Virus record (IMG/VR): IMGVR_UViG_3300017917_001112
Span: 1-64,000 of that record
DNA from: a virus
Strand: one strand, 5' to 3'
Length of the DNA stretch: 64,000 nt
Made by a program: the position numbers and the translations under genes. The notes under the pieces were generated by a model. That model was not told the DNA's origin and made no database searches. It saw only the letters and a list, made by a program, of their open reading frames with translations. Positions 353-14,103 of the stretch are shown in pieces. Each line of letters opens with the position of its first letter. Position 1 is the stretch's first letter.

Positions 353-353
353 T

Positions 354-449: not shown

Positions 450-454
450 GAATT

Positions 455-718: not shown

Positions 719-719
719 T

Positions 720-727
720 TATAAATA
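720..727 (+). promoter_or_regulatory. T4-type late promoter TATAAATA
   Basis: exact consensus upstream of the 815 operon. Confidence 0.65.
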
Positions 728-814
728 AGTTTATCCACAGTAAATGGATCATGGTGATAGTAACCATGTAAAAAACTATCAACACTTACACACAACACAG
801 AAAGGAAGTAAACT

Positions 815-1096
815 ATGTCAAATATGACTCCGTTCGAGATTCGCCTTGAACTACTAAAAATGGCGAAAGATATGCTTACTGAGGACTACTACGGTAAGCG
901 AGAGCAAGTTTCTAACGACTGGCAAGTCAAAGTAGAAGTTGCTAAACTAAATGGTGGTGCGATTCCAGAACATCCTGGATTCCCTATCTATCCATCCGAA
1001 GCTGATATTATCGCAAAAGCAAATGCGCTTAATGGCTTCGTAAGTCAAATCCCCCAAACTACACAAGAAAAGACTACTATCAAGAAGTCCACCTGA
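815..1096 (+). CDS. hypothetical protein of T4-like phages (TPFEIRLELLKMA...EADIIAKANALNGFV)
   Basis: ORF with AAGGA SD; sequence style resembles conserved T4-like hypotheticals. Confidence 0.75.
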   Translation: MSNMTPFEIRLELLKMAKDMLTEDYYGKREQVSNDWQVKVEVAKLNGGAIPEHPGFPIYPSEADIIAKANALNGFVSQIPQTTQEKTTIKKST

Positions 1097-1105
1097 TATG
1101 GGATT

Positions 1106-1135
1106 GGAGAGCGCACTCACGTGCGTTCTCTTTAA
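1106..1135 (+). terminator. hairpin, possible terminator
   Basis: GAGAGCGCAC-tcac-GTGCGTTCTC followed by TTT. Confidence 0.5.
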
Positions 1136-1153
1136 CTAATTAAGGAGATTAGA

Positions 1154-1699
1154 TTGAAACACTTACTAGCAATTATAGTAACATTAATACTCATCATATA
1201 TCTACTATTAAATGGAACATCAAGAGCTTTCGAAATTTCTTCAATAATCGAAGTGCCATACAAATTTTTAAATGCTTCAGAAAAAAGAGAAATTGATTGT
1301 TTAGCAGACAATATCTACTATGAAGCAGGATATGAACCCAAAGAGGGAAAGGTTGCTGTTGCTGCAGTGACTATGAATCGTGTTAAATCAAAACAGTTTG
1401 ACAGCACAGTATGTGGTGTTGTTAAGCAAAAAACACAAGGTGTTTGTCAGTTCACATGGTTATGTGACGGATCTAGTAAACGCAGACCAAATCCAGATAT
1501 GTATGAACAAGCAAGACAAATTGCATTATATGTTTACTTCAATCATTCAGTTATTGAAGATATGACAAAGGGAGCTATATATTATCATGCCGACTATGTT
1601 TCTCCAGGTTGGAATAATCTGAAGAAGACAGTTAAGATTGGTCGCCACATCTTTTACATTGACCCGAAAGTGAATACAAACTATGCTTCAAAAACTTAA
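1154..1699 (+). CDS. SleB-like cell wall hydrolase (Hydrolase_2)
   Basis: CLADNIYYEA.GE...GKVAVA.VTMNRV...CQFTW...YYHADYVSP.W....IGRHIFY motifs; N-terminal membrane anchor. Confidence 0.9.
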   Translation: MKHLLAIIVTLILIIYLLLNGTSRAFEISSIIEVPYKFLNASEKREIDCLADNIYYEAGYEPKEGKVAVAAVTMNRVKSKQFDSTVCGVVKQKTQGVCQFTWLCDGSSKRRPNPDMYEQARQIALYVYFNHSVIEDMTKGAIYYHADYVSPGWNNLKKTVKIGRHIFYIDPKVNTNYASKT

Positions 1700-2240
1700 T
1701 ATCAAATTAGATTCAGGCGATTCAAAACAAAATTTCTTTTTATTTATGGATGAGGTTACTACCGCATCTTGTAAAAATATTGTTGAGTGGATCTTTAGTT
1801 GTAATTTTGATGACGAACATTATGATTATTTAAATCTAATCATTTGCTCTCCAGGTGGCGATCTTAATGCTGCATTCGCAGTAATCGACACAATGAAAGG
1901 AAGTCATATTCCAGTAAGAACAATTGGTCTTGGTCAAATTGCTTCTGCTGGTTTGTTGATGTTTATTGCTGGTGAACAAGGAGCAAGAATTCTTACACCA
2001 AATACATCAATACTTTCGCATCAATATTCTTGGGGTTCTTTCGGTAAAGAGCATGAATTGTTTGCTCAAGTAAAAGAATTCGATTTAACAACAAAAAGAT
2101 TAATTACTCATTACAAGAAGTGCACTGGGTTAGAAGAACAAATAATCCGTGATAAATTATTACCACCACAAGATGTTTGGTTATCTGCTCAAGAAGCAAA
2201 GAAACTAAACCTATGTGATATTGTAAAGGATCTATACTAA
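1683..2240 (+). CDS. clpP: ClpP-like ATP-dependent protease proteolytic subunit
   Basis: ICSPGGD, GQIASAG (catalytic Ser), ILSHQ (His), DVWLSAQEAKKLNLCDIV. Confidence 0.9.
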   Translation: MLQKLNIKLDSGDSKQNFFLFMDEVTTASCKNIVEWIFSCNFDDEHYDYLNLIICSPGGDLNAAFAVIDTMKGSHIPVRTIGLGQIASAGLLMFIAGEQGARILTPNTSILSHQYSWGSFGKEHELFAQVKEFDLTTKRLITHYKKCTGLEEQIIRDKLLPPQDVWLSAQEAKKLNLCDIVKDLY

Positions 2241-2404
2241 TGAACTGGCTAAAATACTCAGGTGTGTTTCTTACCTTCGCAGTGAATCCATTTCACTGGA
2301 GATTGGGTTTAGAATGGGGAAAAGACGAACTAAGTGCATGGACGCTCAAGTTGAATTTGCTTCCACTTGGCGTCCATGTTGTTGTTGATAATGGTGATTG
2401 GTAA
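2240..2404 (+). CDS. small hypothetical protein (54 aa, MNWLKYSG...VVVDNGDW)
   Basis: read manually; ATG overlaps clpP stop (TAATG). Confidence 0.65.
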   Translation: MNWLKYSGVFLTFAVNPFHWRLGLEWGKDELSAWTLKLNLLPLGVHVVVDNGDW

Positions 2405-2926
2405 TTATAAAGCAAAGAACAACCAGTGAGCATTAGCCAAAAGCAATGCTCCAACTGCGCCAGCTGCAGCACCAGCCCAGAACAATGACATAGTAACTGC
2501 TAGAATAGAAGCAGTTGTCAAAACAATACCAATCTGCAATAATGAACCAGCGTATGTGAAGAAGGGTGACTTCTTCTTCGCTGCATCACGTTCTTCTTCA
2601 AGAATCTTTGCTTTAGCAGCAATTTCTTTCTTATCTGCTTCCATGCGTTTTGCTTCAGCATCTAATTTAATTTTAGCAGAACCATTTGCTTGAAGAGCAG
2701 CTGTTTCATATAAAACTTGACGCACATTTTTCGCTTGATACCAAGACCAAAGATTGTTTGCTGAAATTGTGTTATTTAAAATTTTACTAGAGTTAGAACC
2801 ACCAACAAGCGTATTGATTGCTAATAGAGCAGCCATAATAGAAATAGTAATAGCTGCCTTTCCTTTTATAATTGCTTCGCGTTCGCTGCGTGATAGTGGT
2901 TTCTTTTCTTGTGTTGTCTCAGACAT
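2405..2926 (-). CDS. membrane protein, DUF4337-like
   Basis: TM segments; NNLWSWYQAKNVRQ and LLQIGIVLTTASIL motifs. Confidence 0.7.
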   Translation of the reverse strand: MSETTQEKKPLSRSEREAIIKGKAAITISIMAALLAINTLVGGSNSSKILNNTISANNLWSWYQAKNVRQVLYETAALQANGSAKIKLDAEAKRMEADKKEIAAKAKILEEERDAAKKKSPFFTYAGSLLQIGIVLTTASILAVTMSLFWAGAAAGAVGALLLANAHWLFFAL

Positions 2927-3013
2927 TACTTGTCCTTCCTAAGTAGTCGAATGGCATATAGTGTAACTGGAGAATCCAGTATACATATATATCAAATAAA
3001 AGAAATGGGATAT

Positions 3014-3514
3014 TCATTTCCCAGCAAGTGGATTATCAAGAGCACGTTGAATTTTTCTATCAACAGCTTGATCAACTTGCTTCAATTCTTTACGCAAATC
3101 ATTAACATCTTGACCAACTTCGCGTTGTGATTGTTTTGCACTACGCTCAACTTGTTCAACTGTATTCTCTAAACGACGGATATCGCTCTTTAAATCATTT
3201 TTAATGTCTTGTGTATATTGAACTGACTTCTCAGATTGAACTGCAATTACATCTAATTTTTTGTGAATCTCGGATAAATCTGGTGATACATATTTCGCAA
3301 TCTTTTCTTTCATGCTTTGATAATCTTTATACACCTCAAAAGCACCATACAAACCACCGAGGATTGAAGATACGATAGTAAATGCTACCATTAATTTTGC
3401 TGGTGTAAACTCGTATCCGCCAATGCTGATAACAGTATCTTTACTAGCATACTTCTTAACAGCAGCTTCTGCTTCGTCAATTTTTTTATTGACGTCTTTG
3501 ATTTCTTCTGTCAT
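3014..3514 (-). CDS. hypothetical membrane-anchored coiled-coil protein
   Basis: one TM helix, heptad-rich region, ends ALDNPLAGK. Confidence 0.7.
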   Translation of the reverse strand: MTEEIKDVNKKIDEAEAAVKKYASKDTVISIGGYEFTPAKLMVAFTIVSSILGGLYGAFEVYKDYQSMKEKIAKYVSPDLSEIHKKLDVIAVQSEKSVQYTQDIKNDLKSDIRRLENTVEQVERSAKQSQREVGQDVNDLRKELKQVDQAVDRKIQRALDNPLAGK

Positions 3515-3524
3515 TTTACTTTCC

Positions 3525-3728
3525 TTATTTTTGTCTTTCTAATTGTTTTACCATACTGCGCATTTTTATCAACTCAGAAGCAGATGGACCTGCTGGTGTT
3601 TCTTTATCCATTTGTATAGTCAATTCTTTTGGTTCACTTTTAGTATACCAATACGCAGCGATTGCAAGAACTAGAACTTGCAGTAAATAATAAACCATAA
3701 ACGATTCGAATAAAACTGTTATTTCCAT
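3525..3728 (-). CDS. small membrane protein
   Basis: hydrophobic N-terminus; overlaps the upstream gene in an operon. Confidence 0.55.
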   Translation of the reverse strand: MEITVLFESFMVYYLLQVLVLAIAAYWYTKSEPKELTIQMDKETPAGPSASELIKMRSMVKQLERQK

Positions 3729-6145
3729 TGTAGTTCTACCATTTCGTTGTGTAATCTTTCTGATGCTCCAGATAAACCTCTAAGTGTTCTTGCATTGTCT
3801 ACGTTTTTTTGATTATTATATACAGTAAATGGTTGATAACCACGTCCGTCTGGTATAAAAGTTTTTCCGTAAACATCAAATCCTGGAACAAATGACATTG
3901 CAGAGATAACTACAGTTTGCACTTGTTTTTGTTGCTCGAAGTTTTGAGCATTCGACATTTCTTTTTGTGCTTCTTTTCCTTTTGATATCTCTTGTTGTTT
4001 TGCTACTTCTGCTCTTCTTTCATTAATTTCCTGTCTTGCTGTTTTTTGACCTCCAGCATTTTGAGAATCTGATTTAGCAGGTGTGCTCTGCGCACTTTGA
4101 GTAGTGCCTCCGCTAGTAGTCCCATCTTGTTTTTTCTCCTCTTGTCTTTTATCTTCTTGTTTCTCTTGTTTTCTTTCTGCGGCAACAGCAACAGCAGTAG
4201 GTGCTGGACCAGTGTTGTTTTCACTATTTTGTTTAGATAATTGAACTGGAGCAGCTGGTTCTGCAGCAGAATTAACTATTGCACTTTCTTTAATTACTCT
4301 GTCAGCATTACTATCACCTGTTTTAGAAACACCTGCCTCTATCTTACCATCAGAAGCAACAGCAATAGTTGTTTCTGTAGTAGATCTTGTAAAAGAAGTT
4401 GGCGATGGATTAGAAGAATTAGAAGCAGTTGAACTAGATGAATTTGAATTGTATCCTGGACACATTTTATTGGATTGTGGATTAGAACCACAAGAAGCAA
4501 GTGTCGTTGTGTAATTTGGGCAATAAGAATATGTTAATTGATTACTAGAGCAAGCATTACTAGCAGTAGTATATCCTGAACAAAGAGTATTACTCAGAGG
4601 ATTTGTTGAGCATGTTGTTTGTGCTGTTGAATATCCTGGACAATATGAAGCATATAGTGCATTCGAACTACATTGTGTTGTAGCATTTTGATAACTTGGA
4701 CAGTAAGACGCATAAAGTGGATTTAATGCGCATTGAGTTGAAGCAGTATTATATCCTGGACAAGCAGAGTCATACAATGGATTCGCTGTGCATTGTTGAT
4801 TTAGATATGCTTGAGCATATCCTGGACACTGCGGTGCATATAGAGGATTTAAAGAACATTGTTGAGTTAAATAAGCAGCAGCATATCCTGGACAAGAAGG
4901 ATTGTATAATTGATTAAGTGTGCATTGTTGATTGAAATATGCAGCAGCATATCCTGGACATTGTGGATCAAACAAAGCATTAGATGAACACTGTTGGTTG
5001 AAATATGCTTGAGCATATCCAGCACAAGATGGTGATGATAGGGGATTCGTTAAACATGGATCTGCTGTGTAAACTGCATTGCTATACATGTTACTGATTG
5101 TAGCAGTACCACTTGTCCAAGGCGACATTGCGAATGCTCCAAGAGTTGACATTGGAACAGAAGAGTTTAATCTGTATTTTTTTGAATACGAACCAGATAC
5201 TCCGTTGTTTCCACCATTATGTGTATTTGATTCGCTGAATATTGTTGCATTGTTGGTATCAGTTATAACTGTAGCAACACCTGCATCTGAATACTGCCAA
5301 CCTGTTAAACAAATACCAAACAAATCAATAAAGCTGCAGTATCTACCAGCAACATTGTAATTATATCCATAATCAAACCCATGAATAGTAGCACCTGCGC
5401 CTGCTAAAGCCAGTGCTTGATTGATAGCATATGCTTGGGTTCCTGTAGTTCCAGGTAAAAGATTATTACTTATTTGTACTGTATTATATCCTGGACATGA
5501 TGGAGAGTATGCTGGATTACTAACACATGGGTCAACTGTATAGTTTAATTTAAAATATGGATCTTTGAATTGTGGTCCATAATAACCTGCCCAAAATCTA
5601 CTGTCTTTACCAGTAAAAGAAAGAGTGGCATCGCCTACGCTCGCCAAAGAATATGGATTAGCAAATGTTTGCGTTTGACTCCATTGTGTCCATCCAGTAG
5701 TTGTTGCTGGTAAATTGTGAGAATATGATTGTAATACTGAACCATTATTACTTTTGATAGCTGCTGTAACTGATAGTGTTCCATCATAAGGATTTTGATT
5801 CATGTAAGTAGCACCATATTCCATGCCACCAATTTGAATTCCAGAACCAGATAGTGCTGAGTTAATTGCTAATGTATAACCGATAGTACCCTGAGTATAA
5901 CCAAACATAAACAATCCAGTTGATGCATTGTATCCAGGTTGATTACCACCAACAAAACCACCACCAGTTGAATTAGTAAGAGTAAATCCAGTCCAGTTAT
6001 ATTGTGTTCCTGCTGGAGCAGGATTAACTGTTGTTCCTGCTAAATTTGGAGTAGTTTGAACTTGTGCGTTAGAGTAAGAGAATGAGCAAAATAATAACAG
6101 GAATGCTCCAACCCACTTTGTTATCGAGTTCAAGATTCTGCTCAT
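3719..6145 (-). CDS. secreted Cys-rich repeat protein (808 aa)
   Basis: signal peptide; 11 repeats of C-x2-N-x6-C-[PAS]-[GSN]-Y; charged low-complexity C-terminus. Confidence 0.8.
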   Translation of the reverse strand: MSRILNSITKWVGAFLLLFCSFSYSNAQVQTTPNLAGTTVNPAPAGTQYNWTGFTLTNSTGGGFVGGNQPGYNASTGLFMFGYTQGTIGYTLAINSALSGSGIQIGGMEYGATYMNQNPYDGTLSVTAAIKSNNGSVLQSYSHNLPATTTGWTQWSQTQTFANPYSLASVGDATLSFTGKDSRFWAGYYGPQFKDPYFKLNYTVDPCVSNPAYSPSCPGYNTVQISNNLLPGTTGTQAYAINQALALAGAGATIHGFDYGYNYNVAGRYCSFIDLFGICLTGWQYSDAGVATVITDTNNATIFSESNTHNGGNNGVSGSYSKKYRLNSSVPMSTLGAFAMSPWTSGTATISNMYSNAVYTADPCLTNPLSSPSCAGYAQAYFNQQCSSNALFDPQCPGYAAAYFNQQCTLNQLYNPSCPGYAAAYLTQQCSLNPLYAPQCPGYAQAYLNQQCTANPLYDSACPGYNTASTQCALNPLYASYCPSYQNATTQCSSNALYASYCPGYSTAQTTCSTNPLSNTLCSGYTTASNACSSNQLTYSYCPNYTTTLASCGSNPQSNKMCPGYNSNSSSSTASNSSNPSPTSFTRSTTETTIAVASDGKIEAGVSKTGDSNADRVIKESAIVNSAAEPAAPVQLSKQNSENNTGPAPTAVAVAAERKQEKQEDKRQEEKKQDGTTSGGTTQSAQSTPAKSDSQNAGGQKTARQEINERRAEVAKQQEISKGKEAQKEMSNAQNFEQQKQVQTVVISAMSFVPGFDVYGKTFIPDGRGYQPFTVYNNQKNVDNARTLRGLSGASERLHNEMVELQWK

Positions 6146-6148
6146 TTT

Positions 6149-6679
6149 TTACTTTAAAGGTTCTGCTGGTTTATCCATGTTTACGACTGGTGGTAATACA
6201 GCATAATTACCAACTGCCTTTTTATCAACATTATCTAATACTCCACGCTTTTTCCATTCTTCTTTTGCTGCTTCTCCAATTTTACCCTCAATAGGACATG
6301 GTGTTCCTGCTGCTAACATAGAAGCAAATACACGCTCGTCTTGACATAGTGTTGCAACTGCTGCTACTTTCATTCCCATGTCATAAAGATTTTTGGAAAG
6401 TTTAATTCTTTCACAATTCATATCTCTCATAGTCCCACCCATGGAGATACCAAGAATTTGAGTTTGAACTGCACCAGATGCTGCTACTGCGCAGACATCG
6501 TTATTGATGGTTGTAATTGCTGGAGCCACTGCTGTAGGAGGTGGCGATTTAATTGTTGTTGTGCTATTTGATGTTGAGTCTGTTGTGCTTCTAGAAGTCG
6601 AGTCGGTTACAATTGGTTGAGCAATCGCAAGTGATGAAACCATGACCAAAAGACTCGCCGATGCGAATTTTTTAATCAT
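6149..6679 (-). CDS. secreted hypothetical protein with Cys residues
   Basis: likely start MIKKF at 6679 with SD; signal peptide; PPPTAVAP...DVC...NCERIKLS...CQDERV...GTPCP. Confidence 0.75.
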   Translation of the reverse strand: MIKKFASASLLVMVSSLAIAQPIVTDSTSRSTTDSTSNSTTTIKSPPPTAVAPAITTINNDVCAVAASGAVQTQILGISMGGTMRDMNCERIKLSKNLYDMGMKVAAVATLCQDERVFASMLAAGTPCPIEGKIGEAAKEEWKKRGVLDNVDKKAVGNYAVLPPVVNMDKPAEPLK

Positions 6680-6744
6680 TTTACTACCTTTACTGTTTAG
6701 GTTTTTATAATTATCATTGTATAGGGGATTCACACATTCAACAT

Positions 6745-6752
6745 TATTTAGT
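6745..6752 (-). promoter_or_regulatory. late-promoter-like ACTAAATA for the minus-strand operon
   Basis: TATTTAGT on + strand; the same motif occurs at other late operon starts. Confidence 0.5.
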
Positions 6753-6769
6753 CTTGTTCGGATATTTAC

Positions 6770-6798
6770 TTGACATATATTATTTGAAAGCGTAAAAT
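6770..6798 (+). promoter_or_regulatory. sigma70-type promoter
   Basis: TTGACA-17bp-TAAAAT. Confidence 0.65.
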
Positions 6799-6848
6799 AC
6801 CAGTGTAGGGGTTGATGTAAAAGACCTTACAAACTGTAGGGTTATCGC

Positions 6849-6877
6849 TTGACAAATATTCAGAACTAGAGTATAAT
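6849..6877 (+). promoter_or_regulatory. sigma70-type promoter
   Basis: TTGACA-17bp-TATAAT. Confidence 0.85.
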
Positions 6878-6883
6878 TGAAGT

Positions 6884-7189
6884 ATGAAAGGAAATATAAT
6901 GATTAATGAAATTGATAAAGAGATCCTGCTCATAACTCAGGAAGAATGTGCTGAAGTCAGTCAAGCAATCAGCAAAGTGTTTCGATTTGGTGCTGATGAT
7001 GTATTCAAAGGAATAAGCAATCGTCAACATCTTGAAGAAGAAGTTGGTGATTTAATGTGTATGATTGATCTTCTCATCGATAATGGTATCGTCAGCGAAG
7101 CAGCTGTGATGACTGCGAAACATGAGAAGATGAACAAGTTGATGACGTGGTCAAAAATTTTTTCCGAAATTGAAGAAAAAAGTGCTTGA
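6884..7189 (+). CDS. mazG: MazG-like nucleotide pyrophosphohydrolase
   Basis: EECAEVSQAISK...LEEEVGDL motif pair. Confidence 0.8.
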   Translation: MKGNIMINEIDKEILLITQEECAEVSQAISKVFRFGADDVFKGISNRQHLEEEVGDLMCMIDLLIDNGIVSEAAVMTAKHEKMNKLMTWSKIFSEIEEKSA

Positions 7190-7214
7190 CATATATAAAT
7201 AGATGAGGTATACT
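7186..7214 (+). promoter_or_regulatory. sigma70-type promoter with an embedded TATAAATA late motif
   Basis: TTGACA-17bp-TATACT; TATAAATA at 7194-7201. Confidence 0.8.
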
Positions 7215-7251
7215 TAATACCTCGATAATTGATAAAAGGATTTCAATTCAA

Positions 7252-7374
7252 ATGTTACAACTCTGTATGCATCAGCAAAGTTTAAGAGCCATCAAGGGAT
7301 GGTCGCTAGATGCACGCACATCAACATTTGCGTATGGCAATCCAGAGATTGATTGTGGGGGTACGGTAAGGTAA
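7252..7374 (+). CDS. putative attenuator leader peptide (40 aa, MLQLCMHQQSLRAIKGWSLDARTSTFAYGNPEIDCGGTVR)
   Basis: AAAGGA SD at 7235-7240; contains all 20 amino acids; last codons carry the antiterminator strand GGGGTAC. Confidence 0.7.
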   Translation: MLQLCMHQQSLRAIKGWSLDARTSTFAYGNPEIDCGGTVR

Positions 7375-7400
7375 ACGACCAAAAGTTTCCAAACCAAAGT

Positions 7401-7437
7401 ACCCCAAGAGATGAAAGTCCTTGGGGTTTTTTGTTTT
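7401..7437 (+). terminator. intrinsic terminator of the putative attenuator
   Basis: ACCCCAAG/CTTGGGGT stem plus TTTTTGTTTT; 5' strand overlaps GTACCCC, complementary to 7358-7364. Confidence 0.85.
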
Positions 7438-7456
7438 GTAGGCTATCAAAAAGTGC

Positions 7457-7485
7457 TTGACAAAATTAAAGAGTTAAGATATAAT
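7457..7485 (+). promoter_or_regulatory. sigma70-type promoter of the tRNA array
   Basis: TTGACA-17bp-TATAAT. Confidence 0.85.
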
Positions 7486-7496
7486 TCTTACTCTAC

Positions 7497-7510
7497 TGTT
7501 CTTTAACAAT
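7497..7510 (+). promoter_or_regulatory. rrn-type boxA antitermination element
   Basis: TGTTCTTTAACAAT vs rrn boxA TGCTCTTTAACA, just after the predicted transcription start. Confidence 0.7.
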
Positions 7511-7523
7511 TTGTTCACCTTGT

Positions 7524-7599
7524 GCTCGGTTCGTCTATCGGTCTAGGACACTGCCCTTTCACGGCAGGAAGAGGGGTTCGATTCCCCTACCGAGTACCA
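7524..7599 (+). tRNA. tRNA-Glu(TTC)
   Basis: cloverleaf; anticodon arm CTGCC-CTTTCAC-GGCAG; CCA. Confidence 0.95.
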
Positions 7600-7600
7600 T

Positions 7601-7715
7601 TTATTTTGCTGATTGTAAGCGATGGGCTTGATCATGCCTGACTAACTATGACGATAAGATGTAAACTCGAGTAAAGCATATGAGTCATAGCATACAGTGC
7701 AGTCAGCAAAATCAA
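7601..7715 (+). ncRNA. unassigned structured RNA (long closing stem with internal hairpins)
   Basis: ATTTTGCTGATTGTA pairs with TGCAGTCAGCAAAAT; inner CTATGAC/GTCATAG and GGGC/GCCT. Confidence 0.5.
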
Positions 7716-7716
7716 T

Positions 7717-7754
7717 GGTAGTAGACTCGTCGGGAGACGCTCAGGCTACCACCA
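7717..7754 (+). ncRNA. CCA-ended tRNA-like minihelix
   Basis: GGTAGT...GCTACC-ACCA acceptor-like stem enclosing a small CGTC/GACG hairpin. Confidence 0.45.
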
Positions 7755-7760
7755 ATTTAT

Positions 7761-7834
7761 GCGGGATTAGTTTAATGGTAAAACGGCAGTCTTCCAAACT
7801 TCAGTCGTGAGTTCGATTCTCACATTCCGCTCCA
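7761..7834 (+). tRNA. tRNA-Gly(TCC)
   Basis: cloverleaf; loop CTTCCAA; TCCA end. Confidence 0.93.
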
Positions 7835-7841
7835 CTTATAT

Positions 7842-7934
7842 GGGTGTGTTGATGCTATGGCGTGTGCATCCTCGGACTGTAAATCCGATCCCTCTGGGTA
7901 AACATTGTTGGTTCGACTCCAACCACACCCACCA
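7842..7934 (+). tRNA. tRNA-Tyr(GTA), atypical extended D-arm
   Basis: TCGGA-CTGTAAA-TCCGA; long variable arm; ACCA. Confidence 0.9.
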
Positions 7935-7939
7935 TATAA

Positions 7940-8014
7940 GGTTCCAAAGTGTTCACGGACGCACGTTGGCTTGTCACGCCAAAAGAAGGGGATCGTTACC
8001 CCTTGGGACCGCCA
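7940..8014 (+). tRNA. tRNA-Asp(GTC)
   Basis: TTGGC-TTGTCAC-GCCAA; non-canonical T-loop ATCGTTA; GCCA. Confidence 0.9.
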
Positions 8015-8022
8015 AATACTAC

Positions 8023-8051
8023 TTGACAATTTTTAATGTTTAGTGTATAAT
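8023..8051 (+). promoter_or_regulatory. sigma70-type promoter inside the tRNA array
   Basis: TTGACA-17bp-TATAAT. Confidence 0.85.
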
Positions 8052-8075
8052 TGTTGTTTTTATTAGGAGAAAGAA

Positions 8076-8138
8076 ATGAAATTTATGAAGCGAAAGCGTA
8101 AGATGAAATGTCGAAAACGATTTGGGGGTATAACTTAG
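8076..8138 (+). CDS. Lys/Arg-rich micro-ORF (MKFMKRKRKMKCRKRFGGIT) running into tRNA-Lys
   Basis: strong AGGAG SD at 8065-8069 right after the promoter; stop lies inside the tRNA-Lys D-arm. Confidence 0.5.
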   Translation: MKFMKRKRKMKCRKRFGGIT

Positions 8139-8197
8139 TGGCAAAGTAGTAGGCTTTTAACCTATTAACCAGAGTTCGATTCTCTGTACCCCTACCA
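8124..8197 (+). tRNA. tRNA-Lys(TTT)
   Basis: GTAGG-CTTTTAA-CCTAT; ACCA. Confidence 0.93.
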
Positions 8198-8246
8198 ATC
8201 GCAATTATAAAAGCACACTAAATTAGTAGTGTATTTCTATAATTGA

Positions 8247-8322
8247 CGCAGAGTATGGAAGTGGTCATCCGTTCGGTCTCATAAGCCGAGAATCGCAGGT
8301 TCGAATCCTGCCTCTGCAACCA
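8247..8322 (+). tRNA. tRNA-fMet(CAT), initiator type
   Basis: C1:A72 mismatch; loop CTCATAA. Confidence 0.88.
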
Positions 8323-8329
8323 GTTTCGT

Positions 8330-8405
<76 letters not shown>

Positions 8406-8410
8406 GTTTT

Positions 8411-8466
8411 AGGATTCTTTCAGCAATTTAAAAACTTTCACTGTTAATGAAAAGAAAGCGAATCCT
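8411..8466 (+). ncRNA. CAGCAA-stem RNA 1 (Y-RNA-like; cargo is an Asn-type anticodon stem-loop)
   Basis: AGGATTC..TTCAGCAA...GAATCCT-GTT enclosing TTTCA-CTGTTAA-TGAAA. Confidence 0.75.
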
Positions 8467-8477
8467 GTTGTTTTATT

Positions 8478-8551
8478 GCCCTCATAGTTAAATGGTATAA
8501 CAGTTGCCTTGTAAGCATCAATTCGCAGTTCGATTCTGTGTGGGGGCACCA
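8478..8551 (+). tRNA. tRNA-Thr(TGT)
   Basis: loop CTTGTAA; ACCA. Confidence 0.92.
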
Positions 8552-8560
8552 AATTTTTAT

Positions 8561-8639
8561 CCGAGTGTAGGAAAGTCTGGTTTAATCCGTCTGCTTTGGG
8601 AGCAGAAGATCGCAGGTTCGAATCCTGCCACTCGGACCA
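8561..8639 (+). tRNA. tRNA-Pro(TGG)
   Basis: TCTGC-TTTGGGA-GCAGA; ACCA. Confidence 0.95.
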
Positions 8640-8646
8640 TCAATAT

Positions 8647-8720
8647 GGGGAATTAGTTAAATGGGATAACATCGGCTTTGCAAGCCGAGATTGAGAGTTC
8701 GATTCTCTCATTCTCCACCA
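8647..8720 (+). tRNA. tRNA-Ala(TGC)
   Basis: G3.U70; loop TTTGCAA; ACCA. Confidence 0.95.
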
Positions 8721-8726
8721 TGTTTT

Positions 8727-8843
8727 AGGATACTTACAGCAAATAAAAACTGCTCTTGAAAAGCAGAGGTTGTTGGTTCGAGTCCAACATTGTGTCTGAT
8801 GGCACGATTAGATCAATTGGTAGATCGCTAGAAAAAGTATCCT
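8727..8843 (+). ncRNA. CAGCAA-stem RNA 2 (YrlA-like circularly permuted tRNA cargo, TGA anticodon loop)
   Basis: AGGATACTT/AAGTATCCT closing stem; order is anticodon arm, variable, T-arm, loop-closed acceptor stem, D-arm. Confidence 0.85.
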
Positions 8844-8853
8844 GTTGTTTTTT

Positions 8854-8930
8854 GCCCCGATGACGGAATTGGTATACGTGCTTGCCTTAGAAGCAAGATT
8901 CTGAGAGTTCGAGTCTCTCTTGGGGCACCA
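8854..8930 (+). tRNA. tRNA-Leu(TAG), short variable loop
   Basis: CTTGC-CTTAGAA-GCAAG; ACCA. Confidence 0.92.
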
Positions 8931-8935
8931 TCTAT

Positions 8936-9025
8936 GGAGAGTTGGCAGAGTCTGGTTTATTGCACCTGTCTTGAAAACAGACGGATAGAAATGTCCCGTG
9001 AGTTCGAATCTCACACTCTCCGCCA
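8936..9025 (+). tRNA. tRNA-Ser(TGA)
   Basis: loop CTTGAAA; long variable arm; GCCA. Confidence 0.95.
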
Positions 9026-9030
9026 AATTA

Positions 9031-9105
9031 GCATCGTTAACTCAGTGGTAGAGTGCTTCCCTTACAAGGAAGAGGTCGGGAGTTCGACCCTCTCACGATG
9101 CACCA
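9031..9105 (+). tRNA. tRNA-Val(TAC)
   Basis: CTTCC-CTTACAA-GGAAG; ACCA. Confidence 0.95.
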
Positions 9106-9110
9106 AGTTT

Positions 9111-9210
9111 AGAATCGGTTCAGCAAAACATTTAACGTAGCTCATCGGTAGAGCAATTGCCTGCAACGCAATCAGAGTGGGTTCGATTCCCATCGATAAA
9201 AAACGATTCT
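9111..9210 (+). ncRNA. CAGCAA-stem RNA 3 (acceptor-less tRNA body, GCA anticodon)
   Basis: AGAATCG/CGATTCT closing stem; D-arm TAGCTCATCGGTAGAGC, ATTGC-CTGCAAC-GCAAT, T-arm GTGGG-TTCGATT-CCCAT; no acceptor stem or CCA. Confidence 0.8.
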
Positions 9211-9220
9211 GTTGATTAAT

Positions 9221-9296
9221 GCCCCATTGGTGAAATGGATGATCATACTGTGCTACGAACGCAGAGGTGGAGGTTCAATTCCTTCATGGGGTGCCA
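9221..9296 (+). tRNA. tRNA-Arg(ACG)
   Basis: loop CTACGAA; GCCA. Confidence 0.93.
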
Positions 9297-9304
9297 AACC
9301 ATTC

Positions 9305-9379
9305 AGCCGTGTAGCTCAGAGGAAGAGCAATCGCTTGATAAGCGATAGGTCGACATTTCGAAACTGTCCATGGCTACCA
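9305..9379 (+). tRNA. tRNA-Ile(GAT)
   Basis: ATCGC-TTGATAA-GCGAT; atypical T-arm GACAT-TTCGAAA-CTGTC; ACCA. Confidence 0.88.
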
Positions 9380-9384
9380 AATAT

Positions 9385-9458
9385 ATCTCGATAGTGTAAC
9401 GGCAGCATACCAGTCTCCAAAACTGTTGGTGGGGGTTCAAATCCCTCTCGGGATGCCA
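9385..9458 (+). tRNA. tRNA-Trp(CCA)
   Basis: loop CTCCAAA; GCCA. Confidence 0.92.
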
Positions 9459-9463
9459 TATAT

Positions 9464-9538
9464 GGTGATGTAGCACAGTGGTAGTGCAACTGCTTCATAC
9501 GCAGTAGGTCGTTGGCTCGAATCCAACCATCACCACCA
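9464..9538 (+). tRNA. tRNA-Met(CAT), probably elongator
   Basis: ACTGC-TTCATAC-GCAGT; T-loop CTCGAAT; ACCA. Confidence 0.85.
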
Positions 9539-9545
9539 AATCTGT

Positions 9546-9624
9546 TGGGGATTAGCCAAGTCTGGTCTAAGGCAGTGGTCTTTGAAGCCATCATTCACTG
9601 GTTCGAATCCAGTATCCCCTGCCA
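9546..9624 (+). tRNA. tRNA-Gln(TTG)
   Basis: loop CTTTGAA; unpaired 1:72; GCCA. Confidence 0.93.
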
Positions 9625-9631
9625 ATTCTAT

Positions 9632-9707
9632 GGTGTCTTTAGTGTAGAGGTTCGCACCCGACTCTGTGAAAGTCGTAGTATGGGATCGTTCCCCATAAGG
9701 CACCCCA
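9632..9707 (+). tRNA. tRNA-His(GTG)
   Basis: 8-bp acceptor with G-1; CGACT-CTGTGAA-AGTCG; T-loop ATCGTTC. Confidence 0.9.
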
Positions 9708-9716
9708 AACAATTTT

Positions 9717-9792
9717 GCTGCTTTAGCTGATGTGGTCATAGCAGGGGTCTGAAGAGCCTCGGAAAGTAGTTCGATTCTACTAGGCAGCACCA
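9717..9792 (+). tRNA. tRNA-Phe(GAA)
   Basis: loop CTGAAGA; ACCA. Confidence 0.92.
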
Positions 9793-9797
9793 AACAT

Positions 9798-9873
9798 GCG
9801 GAAGTAATTCAGTTGGTAGAATGTCTGCTTGCCAAGCAGAATGTCGCGAGTTCGAGTCTCGTCTTCCGCTCCA
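9798..9873 (+). tRNA. tRNA-Gly(GCC)
   Basis: TCTGC-TTGCCAA-GCAGA; TCCA. Confidence 0.95.
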
Positions 9874-9893
9874 GTCTTAGATCTTGTAGGGTA

Positions 9894-9922
9894 TTGACAT
9901 TTATTCGTTTTCGAGGTATAAT
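9894..9922 (+). promoter_or_regulatory. sigma70-type promoter
   Basis: TTGACA-17bp-TATAAT. Confidence 0.85.
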
Positions 9923-9942
9923 ATACTTTTAAGGAGAAATAA

Positions 9943-10104
9943 ATGAACGTCTATATTCTTTTTTCTAATAAAAATGTTATCGGTCTCGCTAAAGATGAAG
10001 CCGAAGCGAATCTTATGCTGTCTGAATATGAAATGGCTTTAGGTGCTGAAGACGCTGGTGATTTGTCTTTTATGGTTTGTGAAGTTAGCGAATATTGTGA
10101 TTAA
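9943..10104 (+). CDS. small acidic hypothetical protein (53 aa, MNVYILFSNK...)
   Basis: read manually; AAGGAG SD directly after the promoter. Confidence 0.7.
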   Translation: MNVYILFSNKNVIGLAKDEAEANLMLSEYEMALGAEDAGDLSFMVCEVSEYCD

Positions 10105-10123
10105 ATTTTAAGGAGATTGATTT

Positions 10124-10708
10124 ATGCCTAGTGTGTTTTTAGTGAGCGACACGCACTTCGGACACGCAGGTGTTTGTAAATTTTTGCGTGAGGATGGAAG
10201 TAAACTTCGACCATGGGACAATTCAGAAGAAATGGACGAAGACATGGTTAAGAGATGGAACGAAACAGTAAAACCAACTGACAAAGTTTACCATCTAGGT
10301 GATGTTGTTATTAATCGCAAAGCATTAAACATTATGCGTAGATTAAATGGTGATAAAGTTTTGATTCGTGGCAACCATGACATCTTTAAAGATGAAGATT
10401 ATCGTCAACACTTTAGAGAACTTCGTGCATATCATGTGATGAACGGAATGATTCTTTCACACATACCTATTCACGCAGATAGTCTTGGTCGTTTCGGTGT
10501 CAACATTCACGGACATCTACATTCTGGTAGAGTTATGAGACAACCTGAAGGTAGATACGGAATTCCAATAATTGATGCAAGATATCATTGCGTTTGTGTT
10601 GAACAAACAGACTTTCGTCCGATTTTATTTGAAGATGTTATTCAAAGAATTAAAGACGAGGGTGGGGTTATTGGTTTTAGAAATGGTAATGGTCCCTGTA
10701 TAGATTAG
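10124..10708 (+). CDS. calcineurin-like metallophosphoesterase
   Basis: SDTHFGH, HLGDV, RGNHD, LSHIP, IHGHLH motifs. Confidence 0.92.
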   Translation: MPSVFLVSDTHFGHAGVCKFLREDGSKLRPWDNSEEMDEDMVKRWNETVKPTDKVYHLGDVVINRKALNIMRRLNGDKVLIRGNHDIFKDEDYRQHFRELRAYHVMNGMILSHIPIHADSLGRFGVNIHGHLHSGRVMRQPEGRYGIPIIDARYHCVCVEQTDFRPILFEDVIQRIKDEGGVIGFRNGNGPCID

Positions 10709-10797
10709 GAGATTGGGCAGGATGGTAATGCAGCAGTTTGCTAAACTGTAGATCGTAGGAATGCGGTCAGTGGGTTCGACTCCCACAGTCTCCGCCA
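10708..10797 (+). tRNA. tRNA-Ser(GCT)
   Basis: loop TTGCTAA; long variable arm; GCCA. Confidence 0.95.
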
Positions 10798-10802
10798 TTT
10801 TT

Positions 10803-10879
10803 GTCGCCATAGTTCAGTTGGATAGAACAACTGCCTTCTAAGCAGTAGGTCGCAGGTTCGAGTCCTGCTGGCGACGCCA
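10803..10879 (+). tRNA. tRNA-Arg(TCT)
   Basis: ACTGC-CTTCTAA-GCAGT; GCCA. Confidence 0.95.
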
Positions 10880-10890
10880 TATATATTTTT

Positions 10891-10968
10891 GCCCCTGTGG
10901 ACAAATTGGTAAAGTCGTCTCTCTCAAAAGGAGAAGTTCTCTCAGTTCGAATCTGAGCAGGGGTACCA
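10891..10968 (+). tRNA. tRNA-Leu(CAA), short variable loop
   Basis: loop CTCAAAA; ACCA. Confidence 0.9.
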
Positions 10969-10973
10969 AATTT

Positions 10974-11048
10974 GGGCTGGTAGCTTAATGGTAAAGCAGC
11001 CGACTCATAATCGGTTGAGTGAGAGTTCAATTCTCTCCCAGCCCACCA
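10974..11048 (+). tRNA. tRNA(CAT), probably Ile2 (lysidine) type
   Basis: GCCGA-CTCATAA-TCGGT; GGGCTG acceptor; ACCA. Confidence 0.8.
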
Positions 11049-11062
11049 TTAATGGAGATAGT

Positions 11063-11596
11063 ATGAATCTAAACAATTTTGTAAAAGTTTATAATGTTGT
11101 GCCGAAAGATATATGTGAGTCGGTGATATTGTTATACGAGAATGATGAAGAGTGGAAAACACACAACTGGTATAACAATATTTCTGATGAAAAGAAAGCA
11201 CATCACACAAAGGAACTTGATGTCCTTTACAATAAAAATTTAGATGTTCTAAAACAATTTTTACAAAGTGCTTTACATAAATACTATGATGAGTTAAAAT
11301 TAAGTAACTTGGTAAGCAATCACAGTAATATAAGATTGAACAAGTATAAGACAGGAACTGTAATGTCAGAGCATTTTGATTTGATACGCAGAAATCCAAC
11401 AGATGGAATTCCTGTTCTTACATTTCTTGGCATACTAAATGACAATTTTAAAGGTGGACAATTTGTTTTAAACGGAGAGGTATTGAAATTAAAGCAAGGG
11501 GACATTATTATGTTTCCTTCTACGTTTCTATATCCGCATAGTGTAACAGAGGTAACAGAAGGAACAAGATATACATTTGTTGCTTGGGCATATTAA
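11063..11596 (+). CDS. 2OG-Fe(II) oxygenase
   Basis: HFD...LNDNFKGG...FPSTFLYPHSVTEVTEGTRY; start reassigned to MNLNNF (GGAG SD) because 10988 lies inside a tRNA. Confidence 0.88.
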   Translation: MNLNNFVKVYNVVPKDICESVILLYENDEEWKTHNWYNNISDEKKAHHTKELDVLYNKNLDVLKQFLQSALHKYYDELKLSNLVSNHSNIRLNKYKTGTVMSEHFDLIRRNPTDGIPVLTFLGILNDNFKGGQFVLNGEVLKLKQGDIIMFPSTFLYPHSVTEVTEGTRYTFVAWAY

Positions 11597-11597
11597 T

Positions 11598-11675
11598 GTT
11601 GGGGTGCCAGAGTGGTCTAATGGCGCAGTCTGCAAAACTGTCGATTCGTGGGTTCGAATCCCACCCTCAACTCCA
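11598..11675 (+). tRNA. tRNA-Cys(GCA)
   Basis: loop CTGCAAA; U73; TCCA. Confidence 0.93.
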
Positions 11676-11681
11676 AACAAT

Positions 11682-11758
11682 GCGGATGTGACGGAATAGG
11701 TATACGTATCGGACTTAAAATCCGAGTTTTGAGGGTTCGAGTCCCTCCATCCGTACCA
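11682..11758 (+). tRNA. tRNA-Leu(TAA), short variable loop
   Basis: TCGGA-CTTAAAA-TCCGA; ACCA. Confidence 0.92.
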
Positions 11759-11777
11759 GTTTAAATCGGAGGTTGAT

Positions 11778-12266
11778 ATGAGATATAGAGAAAAAATCAA
11801 TATTCAAGAAGTCAGAGATTTCGTTGAACAATGTGATCCAACAACAAAGATTTACATTGGTTGTGACTCTGAGAGATATAAAGTTGGCAAACAATGGTAT
11901 GCTGACTATATTCTTGCTGTTGTTGTTCATATCAATGGTAACAATGGATGTAAAATTTTTGGTGCGGTTCAGAAAGAAATGGACTTTGATCAAAAATACA
12001 ATCGTCCACGTATGCGTTTAATGAATGAAGTGTACAAGGTTGCGGAACTTTACTTAGAGCTTGCTCAAGAAATTCCGAATGATATCGAAGTTCACTTAGA
12101 CATTAATCCGAATGAAAACTATGGTTCTTCATGTGTAATAAACGAAGCAGTTGGTTACATTCGTGGAATGTGTAATGTTGTACCTTTGGTAAAACCGAAC
12201 GCATTCGCAGCATCTTATGCTGCAGATCGAATGAAACATGTTGTTGATTTTAGAAAAAGTGCTTGA
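11778..12266 (+). CDS. RNase H-like YkuK (DUF458) family protein
   Basis: IYIGCDS...RLMNEV...IEVHLDIN...KPNAFAASYAAD. Confidence 0.8.
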   Translation: MRYREKINIQEVRDFVEQCDPTTKIYIGCDSERYKVGKQWYADYILAVVVHINGNNGCKIFGAVQKEMDFDQKYNRPRMRLMNEVYKVAELYLELAQEIPNDIEVHLDINPNENYGSSCVINEAVGYIRGMCNVVPLVKPNAFAASYAADRMKHVVDFRKSA

Positions 12267-12291
12267 CATTTAAACATGTATCAAGTATAAT
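12263..12291 (+). promoter_or_regulatory. sigma70-type promoter for RNAs 4-5 and the Ro60-like gene
   Basis: TTGACA-17bp-TATAAT. Confidence 0.85.
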
Positions 12292-12311
12292 ATGATTTGT
12301 AAATTGAGAAA

Positions 12312-12529
12312 AGGATGGGTGCAGCAAGTATAAATTACTTAATGCCGAATGCCAGACAGAGGAGGACCACCGAAAGGTGTATTTTAAAACTGGCTAGACA
12401 GAAAAGTTGAAGTAAATCTGACGCTGGAAAGACAGCAAGATGATAGTATCCTATCAGTTTTCAGTGGGGCTGTCCGAAAGGAGACACTGGGGTTAGAATA
12501 AACCAAGTTAACATCAACCCAACCATCCT
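12312..12529 (+). ncRNA. CAGCAA-stem RNA 4 (218 nt, multi-hairpin cargo)
   Basis: AGGATGG..TGCAGCAA...CCATCCT-GTT; inner hairpins include CACC-GAAA-GGTG, GCTG-GAAAGA-CAGC, TGATAG/CTATCA, CAGTG/CACTG. Confidence 0.75.
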
Positions 12530-12553
12530 GTTATTTTTTGTTATAGGAGTTTT

Positions 12554-12668
12554 AGAATAGGTTCAGCAACCAAAATTACTAACAGCGAAAGCTGTATCAA
12601 GGGGTCGGGTTCGCCTGACGACCTGAGTTTCGAGTTCTCAGGTAAAACAAAAAGTAGAAAACTATTCT
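12554..12668 (+). ncRNA. CAGCAA-stem RNA 5 (three-hairpin cargo)
   Basis: AGAATAG..TTCAGCAA...CTATTCT-GTT; ACAGC-GAAA-GCTGT, GTCGGG-TTCG-CCTGAC, ACCTGAG/CTCAGGT. Confidence 0.75.
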
Positions 12669-12684
12669 GTTAAATGAGGTAATT

Positions 12685-14103
12685 ATGAACACTTTTGTTT
12701 CTGCCGTACAAAATCAATCTGCACGCACAACTAACGGCATGCGTGCCCGTAAATCTACTGCGTCTGCTTGCGTAGACTTGTTCTTCAAGATCGGCGCATC
12801 TCGTGGTAAAGATATCACGAAAGACTTCGTTGCTGCTTATGTTGAGAATCGCGAAGTAGCATTGCGTATTGCGCAGTGGGTTCGTGACGCACGTGGTGGC
12901 GCAGGTGAACGTGACTTGTTCCGTCAAATCCTGAAGTATCTTGACAAGCATCAACCTGAAGATGCTGCTCTTCTGTTGAACAAAGTTCCAGAGATCGGTC
13001 GTTGGGATGACATCTTTGTCGTAGAGAAAAACAAGCCAAAAGCATTTACTATGCTGGGTGATGCTCTGCGTGAACGTAATGGTCTTGCTGCTAAGTGGAC
13101 TCCACGTCAAGGTAAGTTGGCTGTTGAAATCCGTAACTTCTTTGGTATGTCTCCAAAGTTTTACCGTAAGTCTTTGGTCGAACTGACTAAAGTTGTTGAA
13201 ACTCAGATGTGCGCAAAAGACTGGGATAACATCAACTTCAGCCATGTGCCTTCTGTTGCGTCTGCACGCTACAAGAAAGCATTTTACCGTAACACTCAAG
13301 AGTACGCAAAGTACGTTGCGGAATTGGTGAAAGATCCAAAAGACCGCACTATGGATGTGAAGGTAAACGCTGGTGCAGTATATCCATACGATGTACTGAA
13401 GGGTGTTGTTGGTCACTATGTGACTAACTTCAACAAGACAGAACTTGACCTTGTTGAAAAACAATGGGAAGCACTCGAAAACTTTGTTGGTGACGCAAAC
13501 GTGTTGCCACTGGTTGACGTGTCTGGTTCTATGTCTGTGCCTGTTGGTAAGAACGCAAACCTTTCTTGCCTTACTGTTGCTGTATCTCTGGGTCTATACC
13601 TAGCAGATAAAAACACAGGTAAGTTCAAGGACACGTTCTTGACTTTCTCTGGCTCACCAGAGTTGCTGCATCTGAAAGGTACAATCCTGCAGAAAGTGCA
13701 ACAAATGGTTAAGTCTAACTGGGATATGAACACTAACTTGGTGAAGGCGATGGATAAAATCCTGAAGACTGCCAAGGACGGTAACGTGCCTCAGGAAGAA
13801 ATGCCAGAAATGCTTCTGATTCTGTCAGACATGCAGTTCGATCAATGCGCAAAGTTTGACGACTCTGCGATGAAAATGATTGAACGTAAGTTCAACGAAG
13901 CTGGTTACGATCTGCCAAAGATCGTGTTCTGGAATCTGAATGCGCATGACAATGTGCCTGTGAAGTATGACACACGTGGGGTTGCTTTGGTTTCTGGATT
14001 CAGCCCAGCAATCATGAAAGCAGTTCTTGCTGGTGATACTGAACAGTTTACACCAGAAGCAATTATGCTGAAGGCAGTTATGGTGGATCGTTACGCCATC
14101 TAA
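12685..14103 (+). CDS. Ro60/TROVE-like RNA-binding protein with C-terminal vWA domain (DUF2828-type)
   Basis: RDARGGAGER, GRWDD, AAKWTPR, VPSVA, YPYD; MIDAS DVSGSM; LSDMQFD; IVFWNL; VSGFSP. Confidence 0.85.
   Translation: MNTFVSAVQNQSARTTNGMRARKSTASACVDLFFKIGASRGKDITKDFVAAYVENREVALRIAQWVRDARGGAGERDLFRQILKYLDKHQPEDAALLLNKVPEIGRWDDIFVVEKNKPKAFTMLGDALRERNGLAAKWTPRQGKLAVEIRNFFGMSPKFYRKSLVELTKVVETQMCAKDWDNINFSHVPSVASARYKKAFYRNTQEYAKYVAELVKDPKDRTMDVKVNAGAVYPYDVLKGVVGHYVTNFNKTELDLVEKQWEALENFVGDANVLPLVDVSGSMSVPVGKNANLSCLTVAVSLGLYLADKNTGKFKDTFLTFSGSPELLHLKGTILQKVQQMVKSNWDMNTNLVKAMDKILKTAKDGNVPQEEMPEMLLILSDMQFDQCAKFDDSAMKMIERKFNEAGYDLPKIVFWNLNAHDNVPVKYDTRGVALVSGFSPAIMKAVLAGDTEQFTPEAIMLKAVMVDRYAI

Follow-up and report, generated by a model that had tools for sequence, protein, structure and literature searches.

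In textbook transcription attenuation, a short open reading frame (ORF) is combined with a terminator and with an antiterminator that shares a strand with it. A ribosome at the stop codon masks the antiterminator, and a ribosome that stalls further upstream frees it. The amino-acid operon leaders trpL, hisL, leuL, thrL and pheL and the multivalent ilvGMEDA leader work on this plan. Here we describe an element of similar build from a lake-water phage (IMG/VR record IMGVR_UViG_3300017917_001112), in which a 40-codon leader ORF and its terminator precede an array of transfer RNA (tRNA) genes. The element lies in the first 64 kilobases (kb) of a single-contig genome of 165,256 base pairs (bp; 36.9% guanine plus cytosine), and this whole stretch of 64,000 nucleotides (nt) is referred to below as the window. 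We think it probable that the element is a transcription attenuator of the ribosome-mediated, leader-peptide kind, one that gauges overall decoding capacity and adjusts tRNA synthesis by feedback. What is established here is the anatomy of the element, its conservation, the covariation of both of its helices, the selected coverage of amino acids and codons, and where this coverage and the stop codon lie with respect to the antiterminator.

How does the element compare with systems that have already been described? As in the amino-acid operon leaders, an ORF is joined to a terminator and a mutually exclusive antiterminator, and an upstream hairpin could be a pause signal. Unlike those leaders, the phage leader has no run of regulatory codons, but draws on all 20 amino acids and almost every isoacceptor family, each about once or twice. 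The genes under its control would be tRNAs rather than enzymes, most members of its family appear to be leaderless, and the genome is that of a phage. Unlike trpL, it has no conserved pairing of the 1:2 type, which acts as an anti-antiterminator, and therefore an untranslated phage leader should read through rather than super-attenuate. T-box riboswitches likewise turn tRNA status into a competition between terminator and antiterminator, but a T-box binds one uncharged tRNA through a specifier codon and the T-box bulge, without translation, whereas the sensor here is an ORF. Membership of the T-box class was rejected, there being no T-box match in window positions 1–14000. In leaders that report translation stress in general, among them toiL-topAI in E. 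coli and those that sense antibiotics, a ribosome stalled at any of many positions in a small ORF turns on the downstream genes, mostly via Rho or by unmasking of a ribosome-binding site. To our knowledge, these leaders are not built to include all amino acids and do not control tRNA genes. The mechanism class of the phage element is classical attenuation; what sets it apart is the pan-amino-acid leader, the tRNA target, the lack of an anti-antiterminator, and the frequent leaderless starts.

The roles of phage tRNAs have been debated for decades, and we know of essentially no description of how phage tRNA genes are regulated. A full-text search of the literature found no description of leader-peptide control of tRNA genes. 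Suggestions include that phage tRNAs compensate for codon usage, keep translation going while host tRNAs decay, or allow the phage to evade tRNA-cleaving defenses (PMC10264068, PMC11555353).

Decoding coverage of the leader family

The original prediction held that the leader ORF encodes all 20 amino acids with 34 different codons in 40 positions, with all four codons for Gly and three apiece for Ala, Arg, Ser and Leu, and a recount agrees. How unusual is this composition? Among 41,114 windows of 40 codons taken from the phage's own ORFs of at least 150 amino acids ("gene windows"), 0.23% have the full 20 amino acids and 2.2% have 19 or more. Gene windows have a mean of 24.3 distinct codons and a maximum of 33, such that the comparison with background proposed for this ORF comes out in its favor: the leader exceeds every 40-codon window of the genes of this genome. 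It is also the only ORF with at least 19 amino-acid types among 166 six-frame ATG-ORFs of 36–45 amino acids. Against stop-free, composition-matched shuffles of itself, the leader is moderately unusual, with a probability of 0.019 for 20 amino acids and of 0.009 for at least 34 codons. Since the single ORF is no more than moderately unusual by this measure, the decisive evidence is that of the family.

The family was assembled from two sources. The MazG-like protein encoded next to the leader has 580 relatives in IMG/VR, from which 80 loci were retrieved; a full-length homologue of the element occurs at the same place in five of the 80, and more distant MazG-like loci have a divergent copy 1.2–2.3 kb further on. 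A scan of IMG/VR for the invariant terminator loop motif gave 72 loci. Together, the two sets comprise 64 unique sequences, from which 59 distinct elements were aligned, with 55 unique ORFs and 52 distinct peptides. An ATG-ORF of 36–45 amino acids that ends just 5' of the terminator is open in 63 of the 64 unique elements, its reading frame surviving many insertions and deletions, and a tRNA array follows on the same strand in every element with enough downstream DNA. The exception, a match to the terminator motif in L092, has neither an ORF nor downstream tRNAs and was rejected as a family member. Five members were missed by the terminator-motif scan (L019:4216-4338, L025:4225-4347, L046:4055-4177, L040:4935-5063 and L065:4925-5023). 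The peptides of L019, L025, L046 and L065 are new, and that of L040 is identical to the peptide of L037; the L065 leader is 32 amino acids long, yet it has 19 amino-acid types.

Homologous leaders before tRNA arrays had been expected to retain their diversity despite low peptide identity. This is the case: although pairwise identity falls to a minimum of 9% (median 50%), all 20 amino acids are present in 33 of the 52 distinct peptides and 19 in the remaining 19, with fewer in none. For the 55 unique ORFs, composition-matched shuffles put the expected number with 20 amino acids at 0.9 and the number with 19 or more at 6.0, as against 35 and 55 observed. The idea that diversity is a by-product of balanced base composition was rejected, because a chance of 1.7% per ORF explains less than one of the 35. 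When residues are shuffled within alignment columns of the 52 peptides, about 6 are complete and about 21 have at least 19 amino acids (maxima 14 and 32; observed 33 and 52). When descent along the peptide tree is simulated from a complete ancestor with column-specific frequencies, the two numbers are again about 6 and about 21 (maxima 20 and 38), and coverage merely inherited from one ancestor was rejected on this basis. Thus, coverage is maintained beyond what residue conservation and shared ancestry provide. Cys, Val, Tyr, Asp, His and Asn occupy different alignment columns in different clades.

The same holds at the level of codons. Both codon boxes are used for Ser and Leu in all 55 leaders, for Gly (R/Y) in 52 and for Arg in 45, and all four of these two-box amino acids are sampled in 42 of the 55 leaders, compared with 1.7% of gene windows. 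The number of distinct codons is above the expectation from synonymous recoding in every ORF. The window leader samples 24 of the 25 anticodon species of its own array, missing Leu-CAA alone; gene windows sample 16 of the 25 on average and 22 at most. In the 24 loci where 15 or more tRNAs follow, the leaders together cover 471 of 501 array anticodons (94%). Complete amino-acid and isoacceptor coverage of the leaders is kept by selection.

Could the ORF instead simply encode a small protein with its own function and be followed by its own terminator, in which case the hairpin at its end would serve stability or processing and overlap the terminator by coincidence? The peptide core HLPLxSGW..R(T/P) is conserved in the main clade of the family, and there is a coding signature in some columns, with those for His, Leu, Pro and Gly varying chiefly at the third codon position. 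Against this, the leader peptide has no match to a Pfam family, and at identities as low as those given above, 20-amino-acid coverage is kept by residues that move between columns. Weak selection on residue identity fits a leader whose composition matters more than its sequence, although it is not proof of translation. The hairpins and promoters described below bear on the same question.

Two competing hairpins and the stop codon

The promoter, Shine-Dalgarno (SD) sequence, ORF and terminator that had been read from the window are all where they were placed (Table 1). The terminator stem runs from CCCCAAG (7402) to CTTGGGG (7420), with an invariant loop, AGATGAAAGTC, and is followed by TTTTTTGTTTTG. 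Pairing had been predicted between GGGGTAC (7358), at the end of the ORF, and GTACCCC (7399). The two are exactly complementary, but the antiterminator is a hairpin of 16–20 bp rather than a helix of 7 bp, and the CCCC at its 3' base (7402–7405) doubles as the first part of the terminator's 5' arm. The main-clade form of the antiterminator reads GAGGGTTTTGG-AAGTAGAC-loop-GTCTACTT-CC(C)AAAACCCTC. Across the 59 elements, its mean folding energy is −22.5 kcal/mol, versus −7.7 in shuffles (z about −6), and in 57 of them its stability exceeds that of the terminator. When the nascent window RNA is folded up to position 7406, the minimum-energy structure is the antiterminator; hence, without a ribosome, the terminator should be pre-empted.

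Both helices covary, as had been anticipated for an attenuator. Covariation was scored on an unrefined MAFFT alignment with 500 shuffles and slid controls. Nine pairs of the antiterminator and four of the terminator have changed on both sides; none of the 500 shuffles reaches the covariation score, and the slid controls collapse. Terminator pairing is kept in 99.8% of cells across the family. The two helices share alignment column 211, which is U in the main clade and C in the clade that contains the window element (the window clade), and it shifts together with its antiterminator partner (A/G, then G) and with its terminator partner (A, then G). Compensation is also seen within single elements, for example TTTTGG:CCAAAA becoming TTTAAG:CTTAAA in L127 and TAC:GTA becoming TGT:GCG in L143. 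The overlap between hairpin and terminator is kept in two clades of different sequence, CCCC and CCCTC. A small protein gene with a chance overlap sits poorly with this conservation and three-way covariation, and a hairpin more stable than the terminator in nearly all elements would disable a plain terminator.

The ORF contains a further hairpin (7288–7304) which, by analogy with trpL, may be a candidate pause or synchronizing hairpin for RNA polymerase. There is no conserved anti-antiterminator helix of the 1:2 type in the family alignment (RNAalifold). In the window clade, the 5' untranslated region (UTR), including AAAGGA, pairs with a conserved AATCCAGAGAT near the end of the ORF to give a long hairpin, 7225–7356. 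This hairpin is confined to the window clade and not kept outside it, and it uses a 5' UTR that 42 of the 55 relatives do not have. It could limit translation to a single pioneer ribosome. In those 42 unique elements (L083–L151, e.g., L085:745-949), a sigma70-like −10 box, TA(T/G)AAT, lies 6–7 nt 5' of the ATG. Because the −10 box ends so close to the start codon, the leader messenger RNA (mRNA) of most relatives apparently starts at its own AUG, which is unusual for an attenuator.

Strong folding could also mean that the element is an untranslated structured RNA, either a riboswitch- or T-box-like sensor of a ligand or of uncharged tRNA, or a small RNA released by the terminator, with the ORF present by chance. 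The whole window transcript folds below shuffled controls (z = −3.9). Moreover, CACGCNCA in the ORF (7313–7320) and the terminator loop AGAUGAAAGUC (7409–7419) are invariant or nearly so across the family, synonymous positions included; this invariance is not explained by coding, nor by any other model. On the other hand, cmscan of window positions 1–14000 found no Rfam family for the element, T-box (RF00230) included, at E ≤ 1, the lone hit within 7370–7431 being a spurious match to another family (17.5 bits). The frame is kept through many insertions and deletions at lengths of 36–45 amino acids, the stop codon has a fixed position in the hairpin, and the start is either a 5'-terminal AUG or preceded by AAAGGA. 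Coverage of amino acids and isoacceptors would be meaningless without translation. We regard an untranslated RNA as very improbable.

If the ORF is translated, where would the ribosome stand when it terminates? The stop codon starts 15 or 18 nt after the base of the antiterminator in 52 of the 59 elements. A distance of 15–18 nt is roughly the reach of a ribosome with a stop codon in its A site, going by textbook footprint dimensions, and at this spacing the entire basal 5' strand of the antiterminator would lie beneath a ribosome that is terminating. All 20 amino acids have already been used upstream of the antiterminator strand in 34 of the 59 elements, and the last 5–6 codons contribute nothing new except Val, which they supply in four window-clade sequences. 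Because coverage sits upstream of the antiterminator strand, the codons at which a stall would be productive carry the diversity, and the codons locked in the helix are redundant. The attenuation logic put forward at the outset, with a ribosome at the stop codon masking the antiterminator strand, thus agrees, as far as geometry goes, with both the position of the stop codon and the upstream coverage.

The same attenuator might respond to a different signal, namely how translation fares in general and not how well individual tRNAs are supplied. It would then act as a timer or as a global gauge of capacity, with read-through whenever ribosomes lag behind polymerase, for example from scarce ribosomes or factors, host shut-off, toxins or temperature. 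A leader with full amino-acid coverage would represent phage mRNAs in general fairly well. In addition, since the antiterminator is the default structure in the absence of a ribosome and there is no conserved anti-antiterminator, the 5' pairing of the window being impossible in the leaderless relatives, any failure of translation should give read-through. However, a pure coupling gauge requires no particular composition, whereas amino-acid coverage and the use of both boxes of Ser, Leu, Gly and Arg are under selection, and the coverage sits in the zone of productive stalls. We consider a general-state signal rather unlikely, and favor an attenuator that senses the decoding repertoire. In sum of its parts, the element has an ORF behind a promoter, an intrinsic terminator, an antiterminator that shares a strand with it, an ORF placement that fits on geometry alone, and an enrichment of cognate codons; anti-antiterminator pairing is missing, and is not a universal requirement of the class.

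The tRNA array and its surroundings

The features of the locus are listed in Table 1. The −35 box of the leader promoter overlaps the stop codon of the MazG-like gene. ARAGORN calls one tRNA gene more than the 27 originally counted in the array, the first being tRNA-Glu in the window.

Table 1. Positions of the leader element and adjacent features in the window
Feature	Position	Strand	Remarks
MazG-like gene	6884-7189	+	Pfam PF03819; directly 5' of the leader element
Leader promoter, sigma70-type TTGACA-17-TATACT	7186-7214	+	11/12 match; kept in the window clade
Predicted 5' UTR (31 nt) with SD-like AAAGGA at 7235-7240	7221-7251	+	Window clade only
Leader ORF, ATG start, 40 sense codons and TAA	7252-7374	+	34 distinct codons, all 20 amino acids
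Internal ORF hairpin CCAT-N6-ATGG (main clade CCACT-N4-AGTGG)	7288-7304	+	90% of cells paired; 4/6 pairs changed on both sides
CACGCACA	7313-7320	+	Near-invariant in nucleotides across the family
Antiterminator hairpin, 16 bp, −20.0 kcal/mol	7358-7405	+	Stop codon 7372-7374 in 5' strand
Intrinsic terminator, 7 + 3 bp stem and T-run	7401-7437	+	−15.3 to −15.8 kcal/mol
Second promoter, perfect consensus	7457-7485	+	12/12 match; between terminator and array
boxA-like TGTTCTTTAACAA	7497-7509	+	One mismatch to E. coli rrnB boxA; just 5' of the first tRNA
tRNA array, 28 ARAGORN calls	7524-11758	+	All 20 amino acids; few interrupting ORFs

What lies between the terminator and the array? The original prediction cautioned that a separate promoter at 7457 might reduce the attenuator to boosting expression. 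The caveat is true of the window, and a downstream promoter is present in 20 of 50 elements, the window clade included, but it does not apply to the other 30. In these, the first tRNA (Gln) is at most 60 nt from the T-run, with no sigma70-like promoter between them (at most 8/12). Given this short spacer without a sigma70-like promoter, these 30 elements show no way into the array other than read-through. The separate promoter of the window array is what would be expected if the ORF were an ordinary small protein gene; in the 30 relatives, however, the leader promoter is the only visible promoter for the array. Taking this together with the peptide and hairpin evidence given above, we judge the small-protein explanation to be very improbable, and retain that of an attenuator acting on the tRNA genes.

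A relaxed boxA-like motif is found in 41 of 50 relatives, and in the window a boxA-like TGTTCTTTAACAATTTG lies within 7497–7517, ahead of the first tRNA; the E. coli rrnB boxA sequence used for comparison is from PMC2176067. A covarying mini-hairpin with the loop CATCG(T/A) lies 3' of the terminator and 5' of the boxA-like motif in 33 of 53 elements (spacers of L081–L151). A mini-hairpin followed by a boxA-like motif is the boxB-boxA order of rrn leaders, and by this analogy suggests rrn-type Nus-factor antitermination of the tRNA array past the gate.

Several other features surround the array. Perfect 12/12 TTGACA-17-TATAAT promoters occur five times in 6 kb, all on the + strand (6849, 7457, 8023, 9894 and 12263), and AAAAAGTGC precedes several of them, for example at 7178 and 7449; the tRNA region looks like a dense early-promoter cassette. 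Within the array, there is a match to YrlA (Y RNA-like) at 8740–8854 that is below threshold (31 bits, versus a gathering score of 69). Downstream of the array, positions 12685–14103 encode a 472-amino-acid protein with DUF2828 and DUF7788. On the − strand, 3719–6145 encode an 808-amino-acid protein with a signal-peptide-like N-terminus and many Cys-Pro-Gly-Tyr repeats of the CPGY(A/N/T) type. The phage also encodes a transfer-messenger RNA (tmRNA) at window positions 407–737 (Rfam beta_tmRNA, 173 bits; tmRNA_permuted, 154 bits), with the tag ANDEVYALAA. The tmRNA points to a betaproteobacterial host and to investment by the phage in ribosome rescue alongside a putative stall-sensing leader. 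A search of the 165-kb genome with the family profile (nhmmer) found no second copy of the element. Comparison with deposited phage genomes (megablast and blastn against INPHARED) found no near relative, the tRNA-Glu gene alone giving a match.

Proposed mechanism and implications

We infer from the sequence that the ORF is translated, that the position of the ribosome decides whether transcription terminates, and that some physiological event causes the ribosome to stall. In the mechanism that we propose, RNA polymerase would initiate at the 7186 promoter and a ribosome would translate the 40-codon ORF. A ribosome that reached the stop codon (7372–7374) would cover the 5' strand of the antiterminator (7358–7376), the freed CCCC (7402–7405) would pair with 7423–7426, the terminator would form, and transcription would end at the T-run. 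With a stall within roughly the first 33–35 codons, or with no translation at all, the more stable antiterminator (7358–7405) would form first, blocking the terminator and allowing read-through into the tRNA genes past the boxA-like site. As phage tRNAs accumulated, they would relieve the stall and shut the gate, because they read almost every leader codon; the result would be a homeostatic loop. In nature, ribosomes might stall because codon usage is mismatched, because host tRNAs decay in the course of infection, or as a result of starvation or of tRNA-targeting defenses (PMC10264068, PMC11555353).

There are several points that weigh against this mechanism. First, coverage is not absolute: 19 of the 52 peptides lack one amino acid, mostly Val, despite the presence of tRNA-Val in their arrays. 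The window leader has a single Val codon, and it falls within the antiterminator strand. In addition, Asp typically precedes the antiterminator base by just 1–2 codons, on the margin of the productive-stall zone. Second, the overall third-position excess is weak (entropy 0.99, versus 0.84 and 0.85), and in the window clade the spacing between AAAGGA and ATG is long (11 nt), with the SD sequence paired in the predicted fold. Third, the attenuator of the window can only add to a basal level of expression, since the perfect promoter at 7457 lies 3' of the terminator. Fourth, phage promoters of middle or late type could be present in the short spacers of other elements; one subgroup has a T4-type middle promoter (MotA box), TGCTTTA-N13-TACAAT, and the others do not.

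What might the leader be for? One possibility, which we put forward tentatively and would not count on, is that it is a phage-borne alarm for attack on the tRNA pool, whether by host anticodon nucleases, by other tRNA-depleting defenses, or by the phage's own degradation of host tRNAs. A stall on any affected codon would then open the gate to a near-complete replacement set of tRNAs. If so, tRNA-based counter-defense would be inducible and self-limiting rather than constitutive.

More broadly, if the proposed mechanism is true, tRNA genes would for the first time join the known targets of attenuation, and for the first time an attenuator would respond to the entire decoding repertoire instead of a single amino acid. 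The leader would offer a compact natural sensor of translation capacity that is directly testable. Hundreds of relatives in IMG/VR make this an abundant family, and the prediction for these phages is that expression of their tRNAs is feedback-controlled, and perhaps induced by defense.

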